Assembly (NCBI GenBank): GCA_017848335.1
Contig: JAGDAX010000052.1
Coordinates: forward strand, 1 to 63,107
DNA length: 63,107 nt
DNA from: Clostridia bacterium
GTDB lineage: Bacteria; Bacillota; Clostridia; UBA1212
Reading direction: 5' to 3'
Numbering within the stretch: position 1 is the first letter of the stretch; every line of letters begins with the position of its first letter. The notes under the pieces are model-generated. The model was given only the letters and a program-made list of their open reading frames with translations, searched no databases and was not told the DNA's origin. Below are positions 3,663 to 61,721 of this stretch, piece by piece. The translations under genes were made by a program, and so were the position numbers.

Positions 3663-4656
3663 CGGGATTCGGAATAAGCGGGGGAGCATAAGCATCGAGG
3701 CGGCTCTGACGCTGCCGCTTGTTGCGGGAACTTTTTTTCTGTTCATCTGCGTCATACAGTCACTTTGCCTTCATGCGGCGGTTTCAAATGCCTCTCTCAC
3801 GGTGTCCGAGAAGATAGCCGCCGATTCGGTCATATTTTACAAGAGCGGCTTCAACAATCTAAAGGACGGCGTCAAAAAGGCTGCGCTTTCCCTGCTGCCG
3901 GATGACGGTGTGTCCGGCGCGATATCGCAAAGCCTTGGCGACGTTGCTTTCGGTAAGCTCGAATCGGCCGCCTGGTCAGCTGTGCTGACGCCGATACTGG
4001 AGCGTGAAATTAAAAAAGAGATCGAAATGACAGGAATCAAAATGGAGCTCCGCGGAGTGAGCCTTGCAGGGAGCAGCTTTTACGAGAACGGCAACGAGTT
4101 CGAGCTGCGGGTGAGGTGCGGCGCCGATTATATTCTGCCTATGTTTTTCACCCGCGGGAAGGGGATCGAAACCACCTGCTGCGTCAAGGGAAACGGATGG
4201 CTTTACGGGGGCACCACAAGGTATACAGTCGCGGATATAAACGTATGGGAGCTTTCGAACCTTAAGCGCGGCAAGGTCATAGAGGAGGTTTTCGGTTCGA
4301 ATCTGCCGGAGTTCTTCCCGGTGGTCGACCTCTACGACAGCAAGTCGAAGACCGTGACTGTGTTTGTGAGCATTGACGTTACAGCGCCGTATTACAGTAA
4401 CGAATCGAATCTCAGGAGGGCGTTGTTTTCGCATTGCGGGAAGCTGAAAGACTTTGAGGGCGGAGAGGCGGAGGGCGTTAAGATCGACGCGAAGGATATT
4501 AAGCACAGGAAGATATTGCTGGTGCTGCCCGACAACGCCTCCGACATCGCATATGCCAATACGTTATTGAATCTGTCAATTGACTGCGGACTTAAATACA
4601 ACGTGACTGTTGAAGCTGTGTTCTATCAGCATTCATACGTCCACGAGAATAAGTGA
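3649..4656 (+). CDS. TadE-like pilin with C-terminal CdiA-CT-like (PD-(D/E)xK fold) domain, probably degenerate
   Basis: KRG|SISIEAALTLP pilin N-terminus; C-terminal RGKVIEEVFGSNLPEFFPVVDLYD...SIDVT...IKHRKILLVLP resembles nuclease toxin domains. Confidence 0.65.
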   Translation: MGIIDGIRNKRGSISIEAALTLPLVAGTFFLFICVIQSLCLHAAVSNASLTVSEKIAADSVIFYKSGFNNLKDGVKKAALSLLPDDGVSGAISQSLGDVAFGKLESAAWSAVLTPILEREIKKEIEMTGIKMELRGVSLAGSSFYENGNEFELRVRCGADYILPMFFTRGKGIETTCCVKGNGWLYGGTTRYTVADINVWELSNLKRGKVIEEVFGSNLPEFFPVVDLYDSKSKTVTVFVSIDVTAPYYSNESNLRRALFSHCGKLKDFEGGEAEGVKIDAKDIKHRKILLVLPDNASDIAYANTLLNLSIDCGLKYNVTVEAVFYQHSYVHENK

Positions 4657-4912
4657 GGCGAAGTCAGGGAGCTACGAGAGGATTCGGGGAATTTCGAAAA
4701 GCTTCAGGAGGATCCGGGAAGCTTTGAGAGGCTTCAAGAGGCTTCCGGGGGATTTGAGAGGCTTCAAGAGAATTCACGGAATTACGGGAAGCTTCAGGAA
4801 GCATCAGAAAATCTGCGCTGCTGCTTTTGAAACGGATAGACTTTGAGCACGGTATTATGGTAAAATCCAGACGTAAAGGAAAAATTTTTTGAAAGCTTAG
4901 CACGGGGTTATT

Positions 4913-6655
4913 ATGAATTCAAAACTGTTGAAACTAACTGTTGCCGCACTGGTGATCCTTGCCGGTCTGGCGCTGCTTTCGGCGTGCTCTGACGTGAAGC
5001 CGGGCAGAAGGGTGGTTGAGTTTCCTGACAGCGCCGCGCCGGAATTCACGGATGAAAATATCCGTATGGACGTGACCGTGGACGGCGAGCCTGAGGTAAT
5101 TTACGCGCCTTTAAAAGGAGGGGTCGGTTACAGATACGGGCCGGTCTTTATGTACTATCCCGACGGCTCCTGCGACGCATGGTTTGCCACCACGGGTGCG
5201 AACGGAGACTGGGACTGGCTCACGGTGAGGCATGCCGAAAAGGATTTCCAATTCGGAGAGGAAAAGGTGTGCCTTGTGCCGACGCCGAATTCGATGGACA
5301 AATATTCCTGCTGCGACCCGGGTATCGTATATTTCAACGGGTATTATTATCTGGGCTATACTTCGACCATCACCGAAACTAACGGAGGCTGCAACAACAA
5401 CGTCTTTGTGGCAAGGTCGCGCAATCCTGAGGGTCCTTACGAAAAATGGGACGGAGAAGGCTGGGGCGGCGACCCGGAGCCGATCATCTACTACGATGAG
5501 GAATTTCTGTTCTACGGCGCGGGAGAGCCGAGCTTTGTGATTCTCGGTGACACGCTGTACATTTACTACACGTGGATATGCGGTCACGGCTCGTTCCTCG
5601 GTGTGGCGACGGCCGATCTTTCCGAGAACTGGCCCGCAACGGTTAAGGTCCACGAGGATAAGCTGATGAGGAAGCAAAGCGATTCCTTCGACGTGATCTA
5701 CGTGGAGGAGACGGGAAGGTTTCTCGCGTTTGCCACGGAGCACAGGATTACGAGAAACAGCGGCATCGTGGTGTATGAATCAACCAACGGGCTTGATTTT
5801 ACGAGGAACGAGCTTCTGCGAGGCGGCCTGTACGCGTACTGTCACAATATGGGCATCGCAAGGCGCCCCGACGGACACGTGAGGCTGACGGATAATATTG
5901 TGGTCGGGTATGCCTTCAGCGACGGCGGGCCGGACAACTGGGGAAAATGGGCAACCGCCATCCAGCCTGTTAAGCTTTCGATTTCGGACGCGGAATCAAT
6001 GAAGATCGACGACGAAAAGACGCTCAGCACCGTTCGCGAGGATTGCTTCTCGGAGCCTTTGCAGAATCCGACAGCCATTAATTTCTGCGCTCTTCCGAGG
6101 TATATTGAGGCGTACAACTTCTCCGAATACACGGATCTGGCGTTCTGCTGGTATGACCGGAATCTTGCGCCGTATCCTGTCACGGACGTAAAGAACGTCA
6201 AGGCGGTGGATTACGATAAGTCGCTGGTTTCCTTCAAGGGCAACCGGATGTATATACTCGGAAAGGTGGGTGAAACCAGGGTCACGTTCAAGTACAAGGG
6301 TTTCAGCGACACGATTGTCGTGGCTATAAGGGATAACGAAACCGATATTGATAATCCTTACAGGAGGGAGGTGAAGAGCGCTGAGCTCGTGAATGATGAG
6401 TTTATTATTCCGCTGAGCTGCGTTCACCGTCGGCAGATCAGATACCACGTGATATTTACCGACAATTCGTGGTGCGAGACATACGGCGAGCCGGCGATCG
6501 TGAAGAAGTTCCCGGTCACTTACGTGTCCCAAAACGAGGCGGTCGCGTATTGCGACGAGAACGGGTTTATTATTCCGCAAAGCGTGGGTGAGACATATAT
6601 CGAGGCCACCGTCGCGGGAATAACGAGGCGCGTGCGCGTTGTGATCGTGGAGTAA
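4913..6655 (+). CDS. Lipoprotein, five-bladed beta-propeller glycoside hydrolase (GH43/GH32-clan-like) with C-terminal Ig-like domains
   Basis: Lipobox LLSAC; CCDPGIVYFNGYYYLGYT, GAGEPS and SDSFDV blade motifs; Big_2-like C-terminus. Confidence 0.7.
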   Translation: MNSKLLKLTVAALVILAGLALLSACSDVKPGRRVVEFPDSAAPEFTDENIRMDVTVDGEPEVIYAPLKGGVGYRYGPVFMYYPDGSCDAWFATTGANGDWDWLTVRHAEKDFQFGEEKVCLVPTPNSMDKYSCCDPGIVYFNGYYYLGYTSTITETNGGCNNNVFVARSRNPEGPYEKWDGEGWGGDPEPIIYYDEEFLFYGAGEPSFVILGDTLYIYYTWICGHGSFLGVATADLSENWPATVKVHEDKLMRKQSDSFDVIYVEETGRFLAFATEHRITRNSGIVVYESTNGLDFTRNELLRGGLYAYCHNMGIARRPDGHVRLTDNIVVGYAFSDGGPDNWGKWATAIQPVKLSISDAESMKIDDEKTLSTVREDCFSEPLQNPTAINFCALPRYIEAYNFSEYTDLAFCWYDRNLAPYPVTDVKNVKAVDYDKSLVSFKGNRMYILGKVGETRVTFKYKGFSDTIVVAIRDNETDIDNPYRREVKSAELVNDEFIIPLSCVHRRQIRYHVIFTDNSWCETYGEPAIVKKFPVTYVSQNEAVAYCDENGFIIPQSVGETYIEATVAGITRRVRVVIVE

Positions 6656-6692
6656 GGGCGGGGGCTAAAGACAAGAGCCGCGAAGCGAGCTT

Positions 6693-6762
6693 GCACCCTG
6701 CACCGTGCACCCGGCACGGTGCATCCGGCACCTGGCACCCGACGCTCAGCACACTGCACGTG
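6693..6762. repeat. Tandem heptamer array (GCACCCG consensus, 10 units)
   Basis: GCACCCT GCACCGT GCACCCG GCACGGT GCATCCG GCACCTG GCACCCG ACGCTCA GCACACT GCACGTG. Confidence 0.8.
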
Positions 6763-6826
6763 CCGCAGATAATATCAGAAATCAAGGCTTCGGCCTTTTT
6801 AAAAGCATTTTGACTGAACACTTATT

Positions 6827-8716
6827 ATGACTAAAACATTTTTGACTAAATTGACTAAGCAGATTCGTATTGGCGCGCTGATTTTATTATCGGCTATGGT
6901 TTTATTGTCCTGTACAGGTATGGAGAACGAAAACAAACAGGCGGTTCCGAAATATAAGGTTTCATATATTGACGGGTACACCGCGGATGAGTATTACAAC
7001 AACGGCAACAGCACGGATTTCGTTATCGGCATTGACGAGTTCGGAAGGACCTTCGGCGAGACGCTGGGAGAGAAGGAGGACAAGCAGAGGGACGTAGGAA
7101 TATTCTATTTTCTGACGCTGGGTCAGCACGGGGCGGATGATATATATGACGCTTCGAAGATACTTGCTGAGCCTGACGGAGTGCATAAAATGTTTCATTC
7201 CTCTTCACCGGAGGCGCCTGAGGGCGGGATTTTCTTCTGGGGAGAGCCGCTGTACGGGTATTACAATTCCTCCGACGCGTGGGTCATAAGGCGGCACCTT
7301 GAGCTTCTCACGGAGGCGGGGGTCGACTTCCTGGTGTTTGATACCACCAATGCCTTCACGTATGACAACGTGGTTCAGAAAATTGTGAAGTCCGTGGTGA
7401 AGCTTCGCGAGGAGGGCTTTGACTGTCCGCAGCTTGCGTATTACAGCAATTCGTATTCGCACCGCGTGATTCAAAGCGTGTATGAGAATTTCTACAAGAA
7501 TGAGAATTACGCTGAGGCATGGTACAGGATCGACGGGAAGCCGTTGATCATCGGGAATATCACTGTGGGCGATGACAAGGCTGAGGCGTGGGGCCGCGGA
7601 GATATGGGCTATAAGTCGTTTGAACTGTCTGACGAGATCAAAGAGTTTTTCAGCTTCAGGGCGTCACAGTGGCCCTTTGCTCCGTTCCTTGACAACGGAT
7701 TTCCGTGGATGGAGTGGACTTATCCGGCGCCTGTTCACGGTGACGTGATAAACGTGGCCGTGGCGGCCCATCCTGCGCTTCCGATGTCCTTCTCGATCAC
7801 GCGAGGGGCAAAGAACTGGGGGCGCGGATATAACGTGAAAACGCAGACCAACGAAGCGGCCGGCGTTATGAAGGGGCAGTATTTCCAGTCCTGCTGGGAT
7901 GTGGCGCTGGAGGAGGACCCGCCGATAGTGTTTGTGACAGGCTGGAACGAATGGGTGGCCGGCAAGAACACGTACGACGGCGAATACGCCATGGTCGATC
8001 TGGCGAATCTTGAATTCTCAAGGGACGCTGAAATCATGAAGGGCGGCTACAACGACGCGTTTTACATTCAGCTTGCTTCGAATATCAGAAAGTACAAGTC
8101 TGTGAACGCGAAGCCCGGACAGCAGTTCAGGCACGAGAACGTTACGATTGATATTGAAGGCGATTTTGCGCAGTGGGACGGCGTCAAGGCGGTCTTTAAA
8201 GCGCCTGTGCTGGAGAATAAACCGCGCAAGTCCTTCGGCGCGGCGCAGACGGTCAGGTACGAGACTCCTGCCGCGAGGAATTATATAAAGGAGATGCGCG
8301 TCACGTCGGACGAGGGGTACTTCTATTTCTTCGTTGAGACGGAGGATGATATTACTGCGCGCGAAGCAGGCGATACGGGCTTTATGAACCTTTTCATCGG
8401 GAAGGGAGCTCTGGCGCTCAAGGGCTTCAACGGCTATGAATTTGTGATAGGCAGGCAGGAGAAGGACGGCAGGCTCAGCGTTGAAAAGCTTTCCGCGGAT
8501 TATTCCGGCAAAAATGCCGGCGAGGTGGATTTCAGGATCGTCGGAAACAAAATGATGATCAGGGTCGCAAGAAGCGTGCTGGGTATCGCCGCGGGCGACA
8601 ACAACCTGTATTTTAAGATGGCGGACGGAATAGAAAAGGCCGACGATATAATGGACTACTACGTGTCCGGCAAGTCATTCCCGGTGGGGAGGCTGAGCTT
8701 CAGATACCTGGGATGA
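6827..8716 (+). CDS. Lipoprotein, GH99/GH71-like TIM-barrel glycoside hydrolase
   Basis: Lipobox VLLSC; FWGEPLYGYY, RRHLELLTEAGVDFLVFDTTN and FVTGWNEW motifs. Confidence 0.65.
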   Translation: MTKTFLTKLTKQIRIGALILLSAMVLLSCTGMENENKQAVPKYKVSYIDGYTADEYYNNGNSTDFVIGIDEFGRTFGETLGEKEDKQRDVGIFYFLTLGQHGADDIYDASKILAEPDGVHKMFHSSSPEAPEGGIFFWGEPLYGYYNSSDAWVIRRHLELLTEAGVDFLVFDTTNAFTYDNVVQKIVKSVVKLREEGFDCPQLAYYSNSYSHRVIQSVYENFYKNENYAEAWYRIDGKPLIIGNITVGDDKAEAWGRGDMGYKSFELSDEIKEFFSFRASQWPFAPFLDNGFPWMEWTYPAPVHGDVINVAVAAHPALPMSFSITRGAKNWGRGYNVKTQTNEAAGVMKGQYFQSCWDVALEEDPPIVFVTGWNEWVAGKNTYDGEYAMVDLANLEFSRDAEIMKGGYNDAFYIQLASNIRKYKSVNAKPGQQFRHENVTIDIEGDFAQWDGVKAVFKAPVLENKPRKSFGAAQTVRYETPAARNYIKEMRVTSDEGYFYFFVETEDDITAREAGDTGFMNLFIGKGALALKGFNGYEFVIGRQEKDGRLSVEKLSADYSGKNAGEVDFRIVGNKMMIRVARSVLGIAAGDNNLYFKMADGIEKADDIMDYYVSGKSFPVGRLSFRYLG

Positions 8717-56562: not shown

Positions 56563-56683
56563 TATTTTATTGAAAGCGGGCCCTCCTGTTTGATATGGAT
56601 GGGCTCTGTTTTTTGGATCGCGGGAGCGGAGCTTCGTGCGGGCTTTGCTTTTACGGAGAGCTCTTTTTAGGCAAGCGCGGCAT

Positions 56684-56732
56684 TTGGTAAAAAAGTTTTT
56701 TTGGTAAAAAGTTTTTTTGGTAAAAGGTTTTT
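56684..56732. repeat. Three 16-17 bp AT-rich direct repeats abutting the radical SAM start codon
   Basis: TTGGTAAAAAAGTTTTT / TTGGTAAAAAGTTTTT / TTGGTAAAAGGTTTTT then ATG. Confidence 0.8.
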
Positions 56733-58229
56733 ATGAGAGAACTGTTCAAACCCGATCGGATCCTGTCGAATATTCTGCCTGAACAGAAGCTGAAGCAGGG
56801 CGCAGATTACGTCCTGTCGCAGTTTGTTCTCCCATACGAAACCGGCGGGAGGGTGCTTCTTTGCAACGTATTGACGCACCGGATCATCGAGCTGAACGAA
56901 GCCGCCGGTGAAGGGTACGGAATGCGCTTCACGGGCAGCGAGGTCGGGGACAGTGAGCTTCTGACAACGCTTGTGAAATGGTATTTCCTTGTACCGGAGG
57001 GCAAGGACGAATGCGCTTTCTACGAGGGGATTTCCCGCATGATGAGGGCGTACACCAGGCCCAAAGGCGTGAACAGCTACGTGATCATGCCGACGCTGGG
57101 GTGCAACGCCAGGTGCGTTTACTGCTACGAGGAGGGCATGGAGCAGACCTCGATGACCCCGGAGACCGTTGAGCAGACCGCGCGTTTTATTCTCGAGACC
57201 AACAGCAATAAGACTATCCGCATCAACTGGTTTGGCGGTGAGCCTCTGGCAGGCGAGCCGGCGATTGACCGGATCTGCGGGATCCTTCGCGGGGCCGGCG
57301 CAAGCTACAGGAGCAGCATGATCTCCAACGGAAGCCTGATCACCGCTGAGACCGTCAGAAAAATGAAGGACCTCTGGAACGTCAGGGACATCCAGATCTC
57401 GATGGACGGAGCCGAACAGGATTATTGCGCCCGCAAGAATTATACCTTCGGGGGCAGCTGCTACCGCCGTGTCATGAATTCCGTCAGCGCCATGAGCGAG
57501 GCCGGGATCCGGGTCGTGATCCGCTGCAACGTAGACGCGGACAACTGGACGGGGATACCGCAATTTCTGGACGATCTCAAGGGCGAGGTCGGTCACAAGG
57601 ATAACGTCGCTGTGTATTTCAGTCCGCTTAATGCGATTCGGGCGAGCGTTGACGACGTTACGATGTGGAGCAGGATCGTCGCGGCGAGGCCGATGGTTGA
57701 GGCCGCCGGCTTTAAGCCCGCCGATTATCTCGGGTTCGGCAGCAGATTCCGCATTTCCCACTGTATCGCAGACGCAGGAAGCGCAGTCGTGGCGCCGGAC
57801 GGCAGCCTTTATCTGTGCGAGCATTGTGTTCCGGAGAGCCGCTATGGGGACGTTTTCCGGGGAGTCACCGACAAGGCGGCGATGGATGCATTCGCGCGGA
57901 CGGACTTCACACGCGAGAAGTGCCGGAAATGCCCGTTCCTGCCCGATTGCACAAGCTTTTCCGCGTGCCCCGTGGAGGATTTTCATTGCAGGGAAGTCAA
58001 GGAAATGCTTGCAAAGGATATGTTGAAACTGCTGGATGAAAAGAGTTATAATATAGGTGCTCCGATGGGGGAGGCGCGTTCTGCCGGTCTTGGTGAATGC
58101 GGCGCCGAGGATTCCCACGGGAGCGGCTTCGGGGACAGCTTAAAGGATCGATTCGAAAATGCCCCCGGGGATGGCTTCGATAATGGCCCGGAGGACGGAT
58201 TCGGGGCGAGAGCAGGATCTTTGTGCTGA
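56733..58229 (+). CDS. Radical SAM/SPASM-domain peptide maturase
   Basis: CNARCVYC (C124/C128/C131), WFGGEPL, QISMDG; SPASM C-x12-G-x4-C ... CxxC-x5-C-x5-C-x6-C; N-terminal LLCNVLTHRIIEL RRE-like extension. Confidence 0.92.
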   Translation: MRELFKPDRILSNILPEQKLKQGADYVLSQFVLPYETGGRVLLCNVLTHRIIELNEAAGEGYGMRFTGSEVGDSELLTTLVKWYFLVPEGKDECAFYEGISRMMRAYTRPKGVNSYVIMPTLGCNARCVYCYEEGMEQTSMTPETVEQTARFILETNSNKTIRINWFGGEPLAGEPAIDRICGILRGAGASYRSSMISNGSLITAETVRKMKDLWNVRDIQISMDGAEQDYCARKNYTFGGSCYRRVMNSVSAMSEAGIRVVIRCNVDADNWTGIPQFLDDLKGEVGHKDNVAVYFSPLNAIRASVDDVTMWSRIVAARPMVEAAGFKPADYLGFGSRFRISHCIADAGSAVVAPDGSLYLCEHCVPESRYGDVFRGVTDKAAMDAFARTDFTREKCRKCPFLPDCTSFSACPVEDFHCREVKEMLAKDMLKLLDEKSYNIGAPMGEARSAGLGECGAEDSHGSGFGDSLKDRFENAPGDGFDNGPEDGFGARAGSLC

Positions 58230-58244
58230 GAAAGGCTGCTTGAC

Positions 58245-58505
58245 ATGAAGCTGAGAGATCAATTTATCACACAGGATTTAGATGATATACAATATTTGAT
58301 TCCCGTTGGCGGTGAAGCCTTCAGCGGTATTGTTCGCAGCAATAAAACCGCTGCTTTCATTGTCGAGCGCCTTAAGAGCGAAACTACCGAGGAGCTGATA
58401 GTTGACGCCCTTTTTGAAAGATTCGACGCGCCAAGGGAAGAAATTGCAAAAGACGTCAGGGACATTCTCGACATTTTGCGCGGGATCAACGCCCTTGAGG
58501 AATAG
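58245..58505 (+). CDS. Stand-alone PqqD-family RiPP recognition element (RRE)
   Basis: 86 aa; YLIPVG...NKTAAFIVERL...IVDALFERFDA..EEIAKDVRDILDIL winged-helix pattern. Confidence 0.85.
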   Translation: MKLRDQFITQDLDDIQYLIPVGGEAFSGIVRSNKTAAFIVERLKSETTEELIVDALFERFDAPREEIAKDVRDILDILRGINALEE

Positions 58506-58637
58506 ATTTCCGTGAGGATTCGCAGGAATTCGCAGGAAGGTGCGAAGAACTGTTGCGGGCTTTTTGATTTCAATAACATTTATATCATGTTTCTGCTGTA
58601 AAAGATGACGTTATGATACCGGAAGGGATGGGAGTCA

Positions 58638-58838
58638 ATGTCAAAGGGAAAATATGAAAAACCGGTGATGGATGTCGTGAGTTTTAAGACGGATATAATC
58701 ACAACGTCAGGTTGTCCGCCGGTCGGAATCTGCATAGACGTATCTCCGTGCAGCTCATACGGCACGTGTTCGCCTGATATTATTATCATTCCTTGCGATT
58801 CCGGGTGTAATGATAACTTGCATAATCATACGCTTTGA
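58638..58838 (+). CDS. Putative RiPP precursor peptide (YxxP leader, six-Cys core)
   Basis: GGAG RBS; leader KYEKPVMDVVSFKTDIITTS; core GCPPVGICIDVSPCSSYGTCSPDIIIIPCDSGC... Confidence 0.8.
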   Translation: MSKGKYEKPVMDVVSFKTDIITTSGCPPVGICIDVSPCSSYGTCSPDIIIIPCDSGCNDNLHNHTL

Positions 58839-59108
58839 GGGGTGCGAGTTATGTGTCCCCTGTCTGGCGAAAAGGAGTCCGCGTCTGCATTTTAAGACAC
58901 GAACGGTTCACGCGAAAGCGTGCTCAGTGAGAGGCTTAATATGCTGCGCGGTGGCCAGAGACCACCGCGCGTTCTGCCCTCAAGGCTCATAATTCGATGC
59001 TCATGGCTCGATTCCTTATATTCCGCAAATCAATTTTTACATTCCGATTCTTACAACAGTCATTGCGTTGCTTTCATAAATCATAGCTTATAATTTTAGA
59101 CCGTTATT

Positions 59109-61721
59109 ATGCTTTCACCACAAGACGATTCACGCAAAAAGCTTTTTTCGTTTTTGTTCGCTCTTGCCGCGATTTTGGCGGTTCTTGTGTGTTCTTTTAT
59201 CGTTCGCGGGATCGCATACCGCGTGCCGGCTGCGGACGCTCAGGAGAAGCAATACTTTTTGGACGACGACGGCGAGCCCTACCTTACGGAGATGGACTCC
59301 TATTTCTTTTTCCGCAAGGCGGGCGAAATGGCTGAAGAGGGGAAGATCAACCTTTACAATTACAGGTCGAGCGATGCGCTTATCGGGCAAAGAGTGTACG
59401 CGAATGAGGACGCAGGCGGGACGCCGCTCGGCCTTTCGGTGCTGTGTTACCTGATCTGGTTTTGCTTTCTGCGCGTGTTCGGAGTGAGCCTTTATCAGAC
59501 TGCGGTCTGGATGGGGCCCGTATTTGGAAGCCTTGCCGCGGTGCCTGCGTTTCTTTACGTCAAACGAAGAGCCGGGCTGGCGGGCGGTATTGTCGCGGGA
59601 ATTCTTGCCGGGTGCGCGATTCCGTTCGTGATCCACACTCACGCCGGCTTTTTTGACACCGACATGGTGCTTGCGATCCTGCCGCTGACGTTCCTGCTTT
59701 GCCAGATCAGAAGCATGCAGGAAAGCAAGCTCGCAAAGCAGATCGTGTTTGCGCTTCTTTCCGCGGCGGCGCTGGTGGTCATGTCATATTTTTGGGTGGC
59801 CTTCAACGCGTATTGCGCCCTGTCGCTTATTTGCACGGTAATATCCGTCGTGCTGATATCGGCGGTGCCCTCAAGGTTTATGAGCGGTCAGCCGTGGCGC
59901 AGGAAGTGGCAAATGATCCGCGGAGGTCTGCTTGCCCAGGGCTTCACGTACATTCTGCTGTTTGTGACCGGAGGGGTCGCCGCGCTGAAGAGAGTACTGT
60001 CGGTCCTTGATCTGCTCAGGTCCTCGTCGGGTGCCGGCGCCGCCGCGCTTCCCGGAGCATACGATTTTGTGGGCGAAATGAGGCGGATCCGCAAGCTTCC
60101 CGGGCTTAGTCCCGTGGAGCTCGTGAAGGCAAATACGGGCTCGGTCATGGGAATGCTTGGCGGGCTCATTCCTTGCCTGCTCGCGGCGGCGGCTATCCCT
60201 CTTGCGATACTGATTTTGTTTTTAAAGGCGAAGCGGAAGGGCGTTGACGCGTCCGGGGGAGAAGGGAACGGTGTCGCAGAGCTTATGGTTGACGCCGGCT
60301 TCCTGCTGCCCTGGCTTGTTCTCTCGCTCTATCTCGCATTTTCGAGCGTGAGATATTGTGAGATCGCCGTGCTTCCGGTTTGCCTGCTTTGCGGTACCGC
60401 CGTTGGCTGCGTGTTTTCCGCTGCCGGGAAGGTGGGAAGAGCAGGTGCGCCTTTCGGAAGCTACGGTAATGCCTCCGAAGCTTCCGGCGTTCTTAGTGCA
60501 GACTCCGGGAACTCTCGCGGGAAATCAAACGCGCATCGTGGTATATCCGCGATTCTGCGCAGGATATCCGGCTTTTTCCGCGAAAGATCCGATATTGTTA
60601 TTCGGGCGGCGGGTATTTTGCTTGCTGCTGCGGCTGTTATTCCTGTGATCATAGGCGCGATAACGTACTCCTCGACCGTGAAGTCTTCCGTGACCGACAC
60701 CAAAAGCCTCGCAATGCAGTACGTGCGCGAGAATACTTCCCGGGATGCCTCTGTCGCAGGCTGGTGGGACGACGGTTATTTCACCGAATATGCGTCAGGC
60801 AGGAGGACTCTTACGGACGGCGGCAGCAGCAGCGGCCTGCTGGACTGGCTTACCGCTAAGGCGCTTCTTACGGACGATTTGAAGCTGTCCTCCAATATTT
60901 TCCGCATGCTCAACGAGAGCGGCGGCGATGCCCTGGAATTGATCATCGGGCAGGGAGTTGACGGCAGCGAGGCTGCAGAGCTTCTCATGGAGCTTTTGGC
61001 GGCGGATCGCTTAACCGCGGCTGTAATTCTGGACGGGAAGGGGCTCGATAAGAGCATTCTCGACAAGACGCACCCTCTCGAAAGCAACGAGATCGTGCTG
61101 ACGCTGAGCACGGACCTTCTCGGTAAAATGAGGGCCCTGAATTATTATGCCTTTTGGAATCCGGCGAAAGGACGCTCGGAGATGAACGCGGGCATAACGG
61201 TTTCGGACGGGTCGAAGGTTTTGAGCGAAGAGGGCAGAGCAGACGTTACGATGTTCCGGTCTGACGCGGTTGTTCATGTGACCGTGAATGCTGACGGCAG
61301 CGTTTCGGCGAATTACTCCGACGCCACGGGGAAGGTTTATGAGCTCGGGCGCCTCTGCGTATGGAAGGACGGTGTGCTCGTCAGCGACGAGTGCATTGAA
61401 AGCCGTTTGACCGGCGATGGCGGTGAAGTGAGGTCATACCCGACCGGCTGCGTGCTTCTGATCGAGGGCGACCGTATTTGCGGCTTGCTGTGTCCCCGCG
61501 AGGTTTGCGGCAGTGTGCTGGTAAGGTGCCTTGTATGCGAGGATGAATCCGTCGGGACGCTTGAGCTTCTGGGCACGTGGTACGGCGAAACCGAAGCGGA
61601 GCCCTGTGCCGCCCAAAGAAGGCTGGGCGTTTACTCGGAAAGCACGTGGGTGACGCAGGTTTGGAGACTGCGGGGTGAAGTGTTTCGGAGCTCTGCACTT
61701 GGCCACCGCGCAGCATTTTGA
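59109..61721 (+). CDS. STT3/AglB/PglB-family oligosaccharyltransferase-like protein
   Basis: Multi-TM N-terminal half; EMDSY (aa 61-65), HAGFFDTD (DxD, aa 183-185), WWDDG (aa 552-556), RRTLTDGG; soluble C-terminal domain. Confidence 0.85.
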   Translation: MLSPQDDSRKKLFSFLFALAAILAVLVCSFIVRGIAYRVPAADAQEKQYFLDDDGEPYLTEMDSYFFFRKAGEMAEEGKINLYNYRSSDALIGQRVYANEDAGGTPLGLSVLCYLIWFCFLRVFGVSLYQTAVWMGPVFGSLAAVPAFLYVKRRAGLAGGIVAGILAGCAIPFVIHTHAGFFDTDMVLAILPLTFLLCQIRSMQESKLAKQIVFALLSAAALVVMSYFWVAFNAYCALSLICTVISVVLISAVPSRFMSGQPWRRKWQMIRGGLLAQGFTYILLFVTGGVAALKRVLSVLDLLRSSSGAGAAALPGAYDFVGEMRRIRKLPGLSPVELVKANTGSVMGMLGGLIPCLLAAAAIPLAILILFLKAKRKGVDASGGEGNGVAELMVDAGFLLPWLVLSLYLAFSSVRYCEIAVLPVCLLCGTAVGCVFSAAGKVGRAGAPFGSYGNASEASGVLSADSGNSRGKSNAHRGISAILRRISGFFRERSDIVIRAAGILLAAAAVIPVIIGAITYSSTVKSSVTDTKSLAMQYVRENTSRDASVAGWWDDGYFTEYASGRRTLTDGGSSSGLLDWLTAKALLTDDLKLSSNIFRMLNESGGDALELIIGQGVDGSEAAELLMELLAADRLTAAVILDGKGLDKSILDKTHPLESNEIVLTLSTDLLGKMRALNYYAFWNPAKGRSEMNAGITVSDGSKVLSEEGRADVTMFRSDAVVHVTVNADGSVSANYSDATGKVYELGRLCVWKDGVLVSDECIESRLTGDGGEVRSYPTGCVLLIEGDRICGLLCPREVCGSVLVRCLVCEDESVGTLELLGTWYGETEAEPCAAQRRLGVYSESTWVTQVWRLRGEVFRSSALGHRAAF

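Follow-up and report, generated by a model that had tools for sequence, protein, structure and literature searches.

Why should the gene of an oligosaccharyltransferase (OST) stand in line with the genes of a peptide-maturation system? The question was raised by contig JAGDAX010000052.1, analyzed over its whole length of 63 kb (hereafter the window), which belongs to a 2.4-Mb, 79%-complete metagenome-assembled genome of Clostridia from gut or rumen. Preceded by the genes for IMPDH, greA and lysS, four open reading frames (ORFs) on the + strand encode a radical S-adenosylmethionine (rSAM) peptide maturase, probably of the SPASM type, of 498 amino acids (aa; positions 56733-58229, Pfam Radical_SAM), a stand-alone PqqD-type leader-recognition protein of 86 aa (58245-58505, Pfam PqqD), that is, the recognition element (RRE) of a ribosomally produced peptide with post-translational modifications (RiPP), a precursor peptide of 66 aa with six Cys (58638-58838), recognized by a leader motif shared with its relatives and without any family match, and an STT3/PglB/AglB-type OST of 870 aa (59109-61721, Pfam STT3 and STT3-PglB_core). 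A prediction made from the sequence alone (the original prediction) had noted that the maturase, RRE, precursor and OST genes are collinear on one strand and that the precursor tail contains an N-H-T sequon (N63-H64-T65, 58824-58832), and all these features were found where it had placed them. Comparative evidence from related loci supports the reading of this locus as a RiPP pathway in which the tailoring enzyme is of a class without precedent: it is fairly probable that the product is a thioether peptide that is N-glycosylated after export by a dedicated OST, the four genes forming one RiPP accessory cassette.

Recurrence and co-divergence of the four-gene module

The DNA around homologs was taken from genomes, metagenomes and assemblies. 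Genes for the rSAM enzyme, PqqD protein and precursor adjoined an OST gene of the same clade in 16 distinct loci, counting the window (WIN, L004/L084, L006/L181, L007/L088, L009, L010, L020, L083, L085, L092, L162/L163, L164/L165, L166, L167, L168 and L192). Because the four-gene module recurs in this way, the collinearity seen in the window is not a matter of chance. The original prediction had proposed a neighborhood test of whether OST homologs co-occur with PqqD, rSAM and leader peptides across genomes, with unlinked genes elsewhere as the outcome that would speak against it, and linkage was what these loci showed. The genes flanking the module varied by locus group (lysS in the window and L164; DNA polymerase III delta' in L004, L009, L167 and L192), and two gene orders were found among the module loci. 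In L010, the order was precursor-OST-PF14907-ScmC-rSAM-PqqD, so that precursor and OST stayed neighbors although the rSAM gene had moved.

Further genes accompanied the module in many of its relatives. An ABC exporter of 560 aa was encoded directly after the OST in 7 module loci, usually followed by a PF14907 'NTP_transf_5' gene, and some loci also encoded a ScmC/HPr-kinase-like protein or an S24-like peptidase of small size; both ScmC-like and PF14907 genes lay beside those for rSAM and PqqD in L007, L010, L020 and L168. Sugar genes were found between precursor and OST in several loci, namely a glycosyltransferase of family 4 (GT4) in L009 and L192, one of family 2 (GT2) in L168, and in L166 a complete ADP-heptose pathway with a family 9 (GT9) heptosyltransferase. 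In this one cassette (L166, 831-6972, and L182, 7700-12841), there were four precursors, and the genes for HldE, GmhB, an epimerase and the GT9 heptosyltransferase stood between them and the OST. Two Ser/Thr-rich precursors of L166 are candidates for a heptosylated peptide alongside an N-glycosylated one.

The module of L164 occupies the same chromosomal site downstream of lysS as that of the window. Identity between these two loci was 95% for IMPDH, 89% for GreA and 84% for LysS, and 57% for the rSAM enzyme, 60% for PqqD, 47% for the precursor and 51% for the OST; the four genes drop in identity together, diverging as one cassette. The pairwise identities of OST and rSAM were also correlated across 13 linked loci (Mantel r = 0.90, p = 2e-4). 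A maximum-likelihood tree placed all linked OSTs (14/14) in one clade of 20 with 99% support in the Shimodaira-Hasegawa-like approximate likelihood ratio test (SH-aLRT); three members of this clade had no rSAM gene nearby, and the sister clade consisted of six OSTs unlinked to the module. Neither rSAM nor OST was present in 7 genomes of the same genus and 4 of the same family. In an empty-site comparison with same-genus genomes, synteny past lysS was not conserved, and the boundaries of the cassette are therefore not definable from those genomes.

The C-terminal sequon

A sequon, N-X-S/T with X other than Pro, was present within the last 16 residues of every OST-adjacent precursor (16/16), in agreement with the expectation of the original prediction that leader peptides beside an OST conserve N-X-S/T. 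In the subclade of the window, the tails were ...LHNHTL (window), ...IHNHTIV (L164), ...ISNHTGG (L162), ...HSNGTNILGL (L092), ...LNASHFHGNC (L083) and ...NASWTNLTC (L085). The possibility that orthologs end at the last Cys, which had been named as an outcome contrary to the prediction, was not borne out, the L164 and L162 tails running past it. With probabilities calculated as the product over precursors of composition-preserving core shuffles, the joint value was 1.4e-7 when a sequon was allowed at any position and 8e-14 when it had to lie in the last 16 residues, figures that overstate independence because the linked loci are related and represent approximately eight lineages.

The same trend was observed when clusters with and without an OST were compared. 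Three OST-less clusters (L179, L180 and L193), with an rSAM enzyme 50-53% identical to that of the window and the layout ScmC-precursor-rSAM-PqqD-S24 peptidase, carried no sequon in any of their precursors (0/4), as opposed to 16/16 beside an OST (Fisher's exact test, p = 2e-4, on a total of 20 precursors with verified context, only four of which are OST-less controls). A protein collection yielded 74 peptides of the same leader family, from which contexts were predicted blind: the sequon-bearing P0240 proved to lie in an OST cluster (L192) and the sequon-less P0259 in an OST-less cluster, both as predicted. The P0240 locus encodes three precursors, with a sequon in 3/3. In L166, the precursor adjoining the OST contains two sequons. 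No conservation of an acidic residue at position -2 of the sequon was detected among the precursors, and the predicted acceptor is therefore a plain one, as in archaea and eukaryotes, and not the D/E-X-N-X-S/T of Campylobacter.

The oligosaccharyltransferase

The OST matched Pfam STT3 (3.3e-36, 126.1 bits, cutoff 24.5) and STT3-PglB_core (2.9e-7, 31.5 bits, cutoff 23), and comprises a multi-helix membrane N-terminal part followed by a mixed alpha/beta C-terminal globular domain. Alignment with 20 homologs revealed as invariant the columns E61/D63, H176, D183/D185, E323, R415 and W552-W-D554-x-G-Y, corresponding in the window protein to E61-M-D63, H176, D183-T-D185, E323, R415 and W552-W-D-D-G-Y557. 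These columns include the residues expected for the second DxD (D183-T-D185), the Glu of external loop 5 (E323), the Arg that binds the lipid-linked oligosaccharide (R415) and the WWDxG motif for sequon binding. In a profile search against the PDB, the top match was PglB of C. lari (3RCE, 2.6e-19), with GFFDTDM aligned to GYYDTDM of PglB, WWDDGY to WWDYGY, and R415 to the arginine in the LRFT segment. The segment E61-M-D63-S-Y-F, outside the coverage of that alignment and invariant in the 20 homologs, is a candidate for the first acidic motif of external loop 1, and we take it to resemble the STT3 'DPYF' motif. An AlphaFold2 model (pLDDT 85.9, pTM 0.85) retrieved with Foldseek PglB structures as top matches (5ogl/6gxc/3rce; E 2e-20, TM 0.68), followed by STT3A/B and AglB of A. 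fulgidus. Considering the invariant motifs, the alignment to PglB and the predicted PglB-like fold, the OST looks like a working enzyme. Its scores for the curated equivalog or subfamily models of PglB (NF050801, 62.6 vs. 1300 bits) and archaeosortase-linked AglB (TIGR04154, 22.4 vs. 450 bits) were below those for orthology to either.

Approximately 60 OST homologs with 33-56% identity were found in rumen and gut Clostridia assemblies, and none in 60 related genomes searched; the next-nearest relatives were AglB proteins of methanogens (~25% identity). The whole bacterial family was nested among methanogen AglB sequences in the maximum-likelihood tree, which suggests its transfer from archaea. 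Methanogenic archaea appear to be the source of the OST family, which a bacteriocin-like cassette would then have recruited.

A wider set of more than 100 further STT3-like genes (L017-L161), 21-32% identical to the window OST, was distributed mostly among rumen and gut Lachnospiraceae and other Clostridia, with some in archaea, Saccharibacteria or others. Strains in culture are represented in this wider family (MC2017, AD3010 and [Clostridium] aminophilum KH1P1), whose genes usually adjoined one for a GT2, for a DUF2304 protein or for a flippase-LicD fusion, or other polysaccharide genes.

The maturase, the leader-recognition protein and the precursor family

The rSAM enzyme matched Pfam Radical_SAM (2.4e-16, 60.8 bits) and Fer4_12 (9e-7), with the CX3CX2C motif at C124/C128/C131. 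The Pfam SPASM score (17.1 bits) was below the cutoff of 21.5; eight Cys within residues 344-419 (C344-C419) form a SPASM-like pattern. The top NCBIfam matches were RiPP maturases (TIGR04463, Clo7bot, CefB and PapB), at scores under their cutoffs (138.5 vs. 525 bits for TIGR04463; 86 vs. 340 for PapB), and membership of the named equivalogs (TIGR04463, PapB, CefB, Clo7bot and SCIFF) was not indicated by NCBIfam score. Since all scores were far under cutoff, the enzyme is best described as of the RiPP-maturase kind, belonging to no named family. Its own family, with 631 clusters at E<=1e-40, far exceeds the OST clade in size. A sample of 400 genomes of the GTDB class returned only rSAM homologs of <=31% identity, and a family-level sample of 400 Lachnospiraceae one further match. 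The PqqD protein (Pfam PqqD, 4.3e-13) was 60-72% identical across all related modules. By analogy with characterized systems, the rSAM enzyme would form Cys-derived thioether cross-links in the precursor core and the PqqD protein would bind the leader. The window rSAM also carries a C-terminal extension of ~60 aa (residues ~435-498, 58034-58229), a Gly/Asp/Phe-rich, low-complexity segment with Cys as final residue, which is missing in rSAM homologs of 437-447 aa.

The precursor consists of a leader of approximately aa 1-25 (MSKGKYEKPVMDVVSFKTDIITTSG; 58638-58712, + strand) and a core of aa 26-66 (CPPVGICIDVSPCSSYGTCSPDIIIIPCDSGCNDNLHNHTL) with six Cys and four Asp, the C-terminus being ...CDSGCNDNLHNHTL. 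Small ORFs at the expected position in every related locus shared the leader motif M-x-K-x-x-YEKPxMxVVxLxxDVIxTSG, conserved over 20 aligned precursors. The cores were hypervariable and unalignable between subclades, with 1 to 10 Cys. The presumed OST substrates are 40-90 aa long and encoded immediately upstream of the OST.

A second cluster of the leader family was found in the source genome (L194, G000 contig C2:19000-29000, at ~4200-7050 on the minus strand). Two small ORFs there encode peptides with a YEKP-like leader and a core devoid of Cys (...PIDDLGWDNF and ...GGGVVDEHGNILLPEVPMKP), and proteins of the ScmC-like and PqqD kinds are encoded as well, together with an S24-like peptidase fusion. 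There was no rSAM gene in the stretch examined, and genome-wide searches gave no second close rSAM. These peptides, which match a Cys-free, sequon-free database group (P0254-P0265), may undergo a different type of modification.

Intergenic regions and neighboring genes

Two caveats of the original prediction concerned the 3' part of the cassette. The gap of 270 nt between precursor and OST (58839-59108) and a TATAAT at 59089-59094, 15 nt before the OST ATG, had been taken to suggest a separate OST promoter. Both features are present, and the gap as a sign of an independent OST operon is weakened, given that ~95 nt of it are a copy of a dispersed intergenic repeat (58867-58963, strand not assigned), that the gaps of the relatives measure 21-156 nt, and that a promoter scan found no -35 matching the TATAAT. 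The better promoter-like site was TTGAAA-18-TATAAT at 58023-58052 (11/12 near-consensus), inside the 3' end of the rSAM gene and upstream of PqqD and precursor, which could give the precursor its own strong transcript. The other caveat, that an out-of-frame TAA-TGA-TAA near the precursor 3' end (58808-58816) might betray a frame error behind the sequon, also stands as far as the triplets are concerned; a frameshift artefact at 58806-58816 was rejected on comparative grounds, being unlikely because the closest orthologs pass the last Cys and keep the NHT tail.

Elsewhere in the genome, the gap repeat recurred 73 times, on 45 of the 169 contigs and often as tandem pairs; it contains a strong GC hairpin (GCGCGGTGG-N7-CCACCGCGC) that is not followed by a T-run. 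No Rfam match was obtained for gap or repeat, and the fold of the gap was no more stable than that of shuffled sequences (z = -0.21). The repeat may be a repetitive extragenic palindromic (REP)- or miniature inverted-repeat transposable element (MITE)-like element, or a small-RNA family of the lineage. Right before the start codon of the rSAM gene, a 16-nt unit (TTTGGTAAAAAGTTTT; TRF score 84) occurs three times in tandem (56683-56732), which may be a candidate operator or promoter-region repeat for the cassette.

The ORFs between 53664 and 63105 encode GreA-like and LysS-like proteins (named after their syntenic counterparts in L164, which had Pfam assignments), the four cassette products and two more proteins, which by appearance resemble a flavodoxin and a glutathione peroxidase. 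No GT2 gene (SunS-like, of the glycocin type) was found among these ORFs, nor any glycan-assembly glycosyltransferase or flippase gene within ~5 kb of the OST in the window.

Proposed pathway and alternative explanations

In the proposed pathway, the PqqD protein would bind the 66-aa precursor via the conserved YEKP leader and present it to the rSAM enzyme, which would introduce intramolecular Cys-derived thioether cross-links into the six-Cys core. The peptide would then be exported, in the relatives presumably by the cluster-encoded ABC exporter. As the active site of STT3-type enzymes faces outward, glycosylation must follow export: on the membrane's outer face, the OST would move a glycan from a polyprenyl-phosphate-linked donor to Asn63, the C-terminal Asn of the peptide being, to judge from comparative genomics, the probable acceptor. 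A protease would finally remove the leader, and a small S24-like peptidase occurs in several related clusters.

Several observations weigh against this pathway. The support for peptide glycosylation is comparative, and, apart from the relatedness of the loci and the small set of controls given above, two of the four precursors of L166 lack a sequon (those with YITP/YIAP leaders and Ser/Thr-rich cores, beside the heptose genes). The hairpin of the gap repeat might terminate transcription before the OST. The window cluster is without the ABC exporter, PF14907 protein and glycosyltransferase of its relatives; the original prediction had already pointed out that no exporter is nearby, which holds for the window, an ABC exporter following the OST directly in the 7 loci mentioned. 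A close ABC orthologue was not found in the 79%-complete source genome, only generic ABC matches of 25-28% identity, and neither were close orthologues of PF14907, GT4 or GT9 elsewhere in that genome; on its contig C34, there is a DegT gene along with genes for a Wzx-type flippase and for a fusion of GT2 with GtrA/DPMS (GT2-GtrA/DPMS). OSTs of the same clade occur without the module in L005, L008 and L012, and five genomes with related OSTs (including those of L008 and L012) have no close rSAM, so that the OST is not obligatorily dedicated to peptides. Finally, it might be the PF14907 or ScmC-like proteins for which the C-terminal Ser/Thr serves as a target. The sequon is retained in clusters without genes for either (window, L162, L164 and L006), and since the OST-less sister clusters also have a ScmC-like gene, this gene does not track the sequon.

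In L005 (9461-12370), the OST is kept with an S24-like peptidase gene before it, and rSAM, PqqD, precursor, ABC and PF14907 genes are absent; this looks like secondary loss, because the flanking synteny of L004/L009 is retained. No recognizable small conserved ORFs or sequon peptides were found upstream of the orphan OSTs.

These points can be read in other ways. The OST might be an N-glycosyltransferase of general function or with other substrates, serving surface proteins and sharing an islet with RiPP genes, in which case the peptide would not be its acceptor. The orphan OSTs of the same and sister clades with no rSAM gene nearby or in the genome (L005, L008, L011, L012, L014, L015 and L169) would fit such a role, as would the lack of an exporter in the window cluster and the usual company of the more distant Clostridia homologs, namely genes for GT2, DUF2304, flippase and LicD proteins of the sort that cell-envelope glycosylation typically involves. 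We nevertheless regard it as rather unlikely, for it leaves unexplained why a C-terminal sequon is found in all OST-adjacent precursors and in none of the OST-less relatives, why precursor and OST remain adjacent when the rSAM gene moves (L010), and why four genes at one site show an equal drop in identity. An OST acting on the peptide in some other manner is quite unlikely as well, whether by transferring a single sugar from a polyprenyl-monophosphate, by modifying another residue, or by having a role in export or in immunity in which the sequon is bound and stays unglycosylated. DPM1/GtrB-type GT2 genes are the commonest neighbors of the wider OST family, with one in L168, and the GT2-GtrA/DPMS fusion of the source genome points the same way, as does the nesting of the OST family among methanogen AglB sequences; AglB can use monophosphate-linked donors. 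The glycan, moreover, is not predictable from sequence. The invariant acidic residues, R415 and WWD motif fit canonical Asn-directed transfer instead, and we know of no STT3-family member that modifies residues other than Asn.

It is very improbable that the adjacency has no function in the source genome, with the OST transcribed separately or silenced after insertion of the repeat and the NHT tail left as a relic. Such a history would account for the repeat and hairpin in the 270-nt gap, the TATAAT 15 nt before the OST start and a cluster devoid of exporter and glycan genes, yet all 870 codons of the OST ORF are uninterrupted and its motifs complete, the TATAAT, for which the scan found no -35 partner, would give a transcript with hardly any 5' untranslated region, and the hairpin lacks a T-run.

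The main reading can also be taken one step further: with about an even chance, the cassette-encoded pathway of cytoplasmic cross-linking, export and N-glycosylation of Asn by a dedicated STT3/PglB-type OST with a lipid-linked donor would be the founding example of a new RiPP class.

Relation to known systems and significance

Among known systems, the rSAM/SPASM thioether RiPPs (freyrasin/PapB ranthipeptides, sactipeptides, SCIFF and the TIGR04463 'rSAM_vs_C_rich' group) share with the window cassette a CX3CX2C rSAM enzyme of SPASM-like Cys pattern and a PqqD-type RRE, next to which, on one strand, a short precursor is encoded whose leader is conserved and whose core is rich in Cys (often Cys...Asp). 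Unlike in these classes, the window rSAM scores far below every NCBIfam equivalog, its thioether chemistry is a prediction, and the cluster includes an OST, which a literature search found described for none of them; a full-text search likewise brought up no publication that connects an OST with a RiPP cluster. Glycocins (sublancin/SunS, glycocin F and thurandacin) resemble the predicted product in being ribosomal peptides to which a sugar is added in maturation. Their S- or O-linked sugar (on Cys, Ser or Thr) comes from nucleotide-sugar donors and is attached by soluble enzymes of the GT-A (GT2) type in the cytoplasm. The window candidate is, by contrast, a membrane OST of the GT-C type with an extracytoplasmic active site, which would modify Asn after export from a lipid-linked donor.

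The OST shares its Pfam domains, as well as the WWDxG and DxD motifs, with PglB of Campylobacter, archaeal AglB and eukaryotic STT3, and its fold is predicted to be PglB-like. It differs from PglB and AglB in lying in a RiPP cassette and not in a pgl/agl glycan-assembly locus, in its host, a Clostridia lineage of Gram-positive type, and in its presumed substrates, peptides of 40-90 aa encoded directly upstream. SynChlorMet cassettes and phosphorylated lasso peptides (paeninodin) combine PqqD with HPr-kinase-like ScmC (PF27840) and PF14907 nucleotidyltransferase-like proteins; L007, L010, L020 and L168 resemble them in having ScmC-like and PF14907 genes, whereas the window cluster has neither.

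The pathway would thus resemble that of sacti- and ranthipeptides up to export and PglB/AglB N-glycosylation afterwards. If this is true, it would add an extracytoplasmic glycosylation step with a lipid-linked donor to RiPP biosynthesis, in which the known glycosylated members depend on soluble cytoplasmic glycosyltransferases. The precursors would be the first natural small-peptide substrates of a bacterial N-OST, and the cassette the first defined N-OST system in Clostridia. N-glycosylation in bacteria of Gram-positive type would gain a defined substrate that is easy to assay, a peptide of 40 aa whose gene lies beside that of the enzyme, and the diverse natural OSTs, apparently accepting plain N-X-S/T at flexible C-termini of short peptides, would be useful for glyco-engineering. 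The OST-only remnant in L005 could reveal other targets of the enzyme. At the level of the wider family, the hundreds of STT3-like genes in rumen Clostridia suggest that a glycosylation enzyme was transferred from archaea to bacteria.

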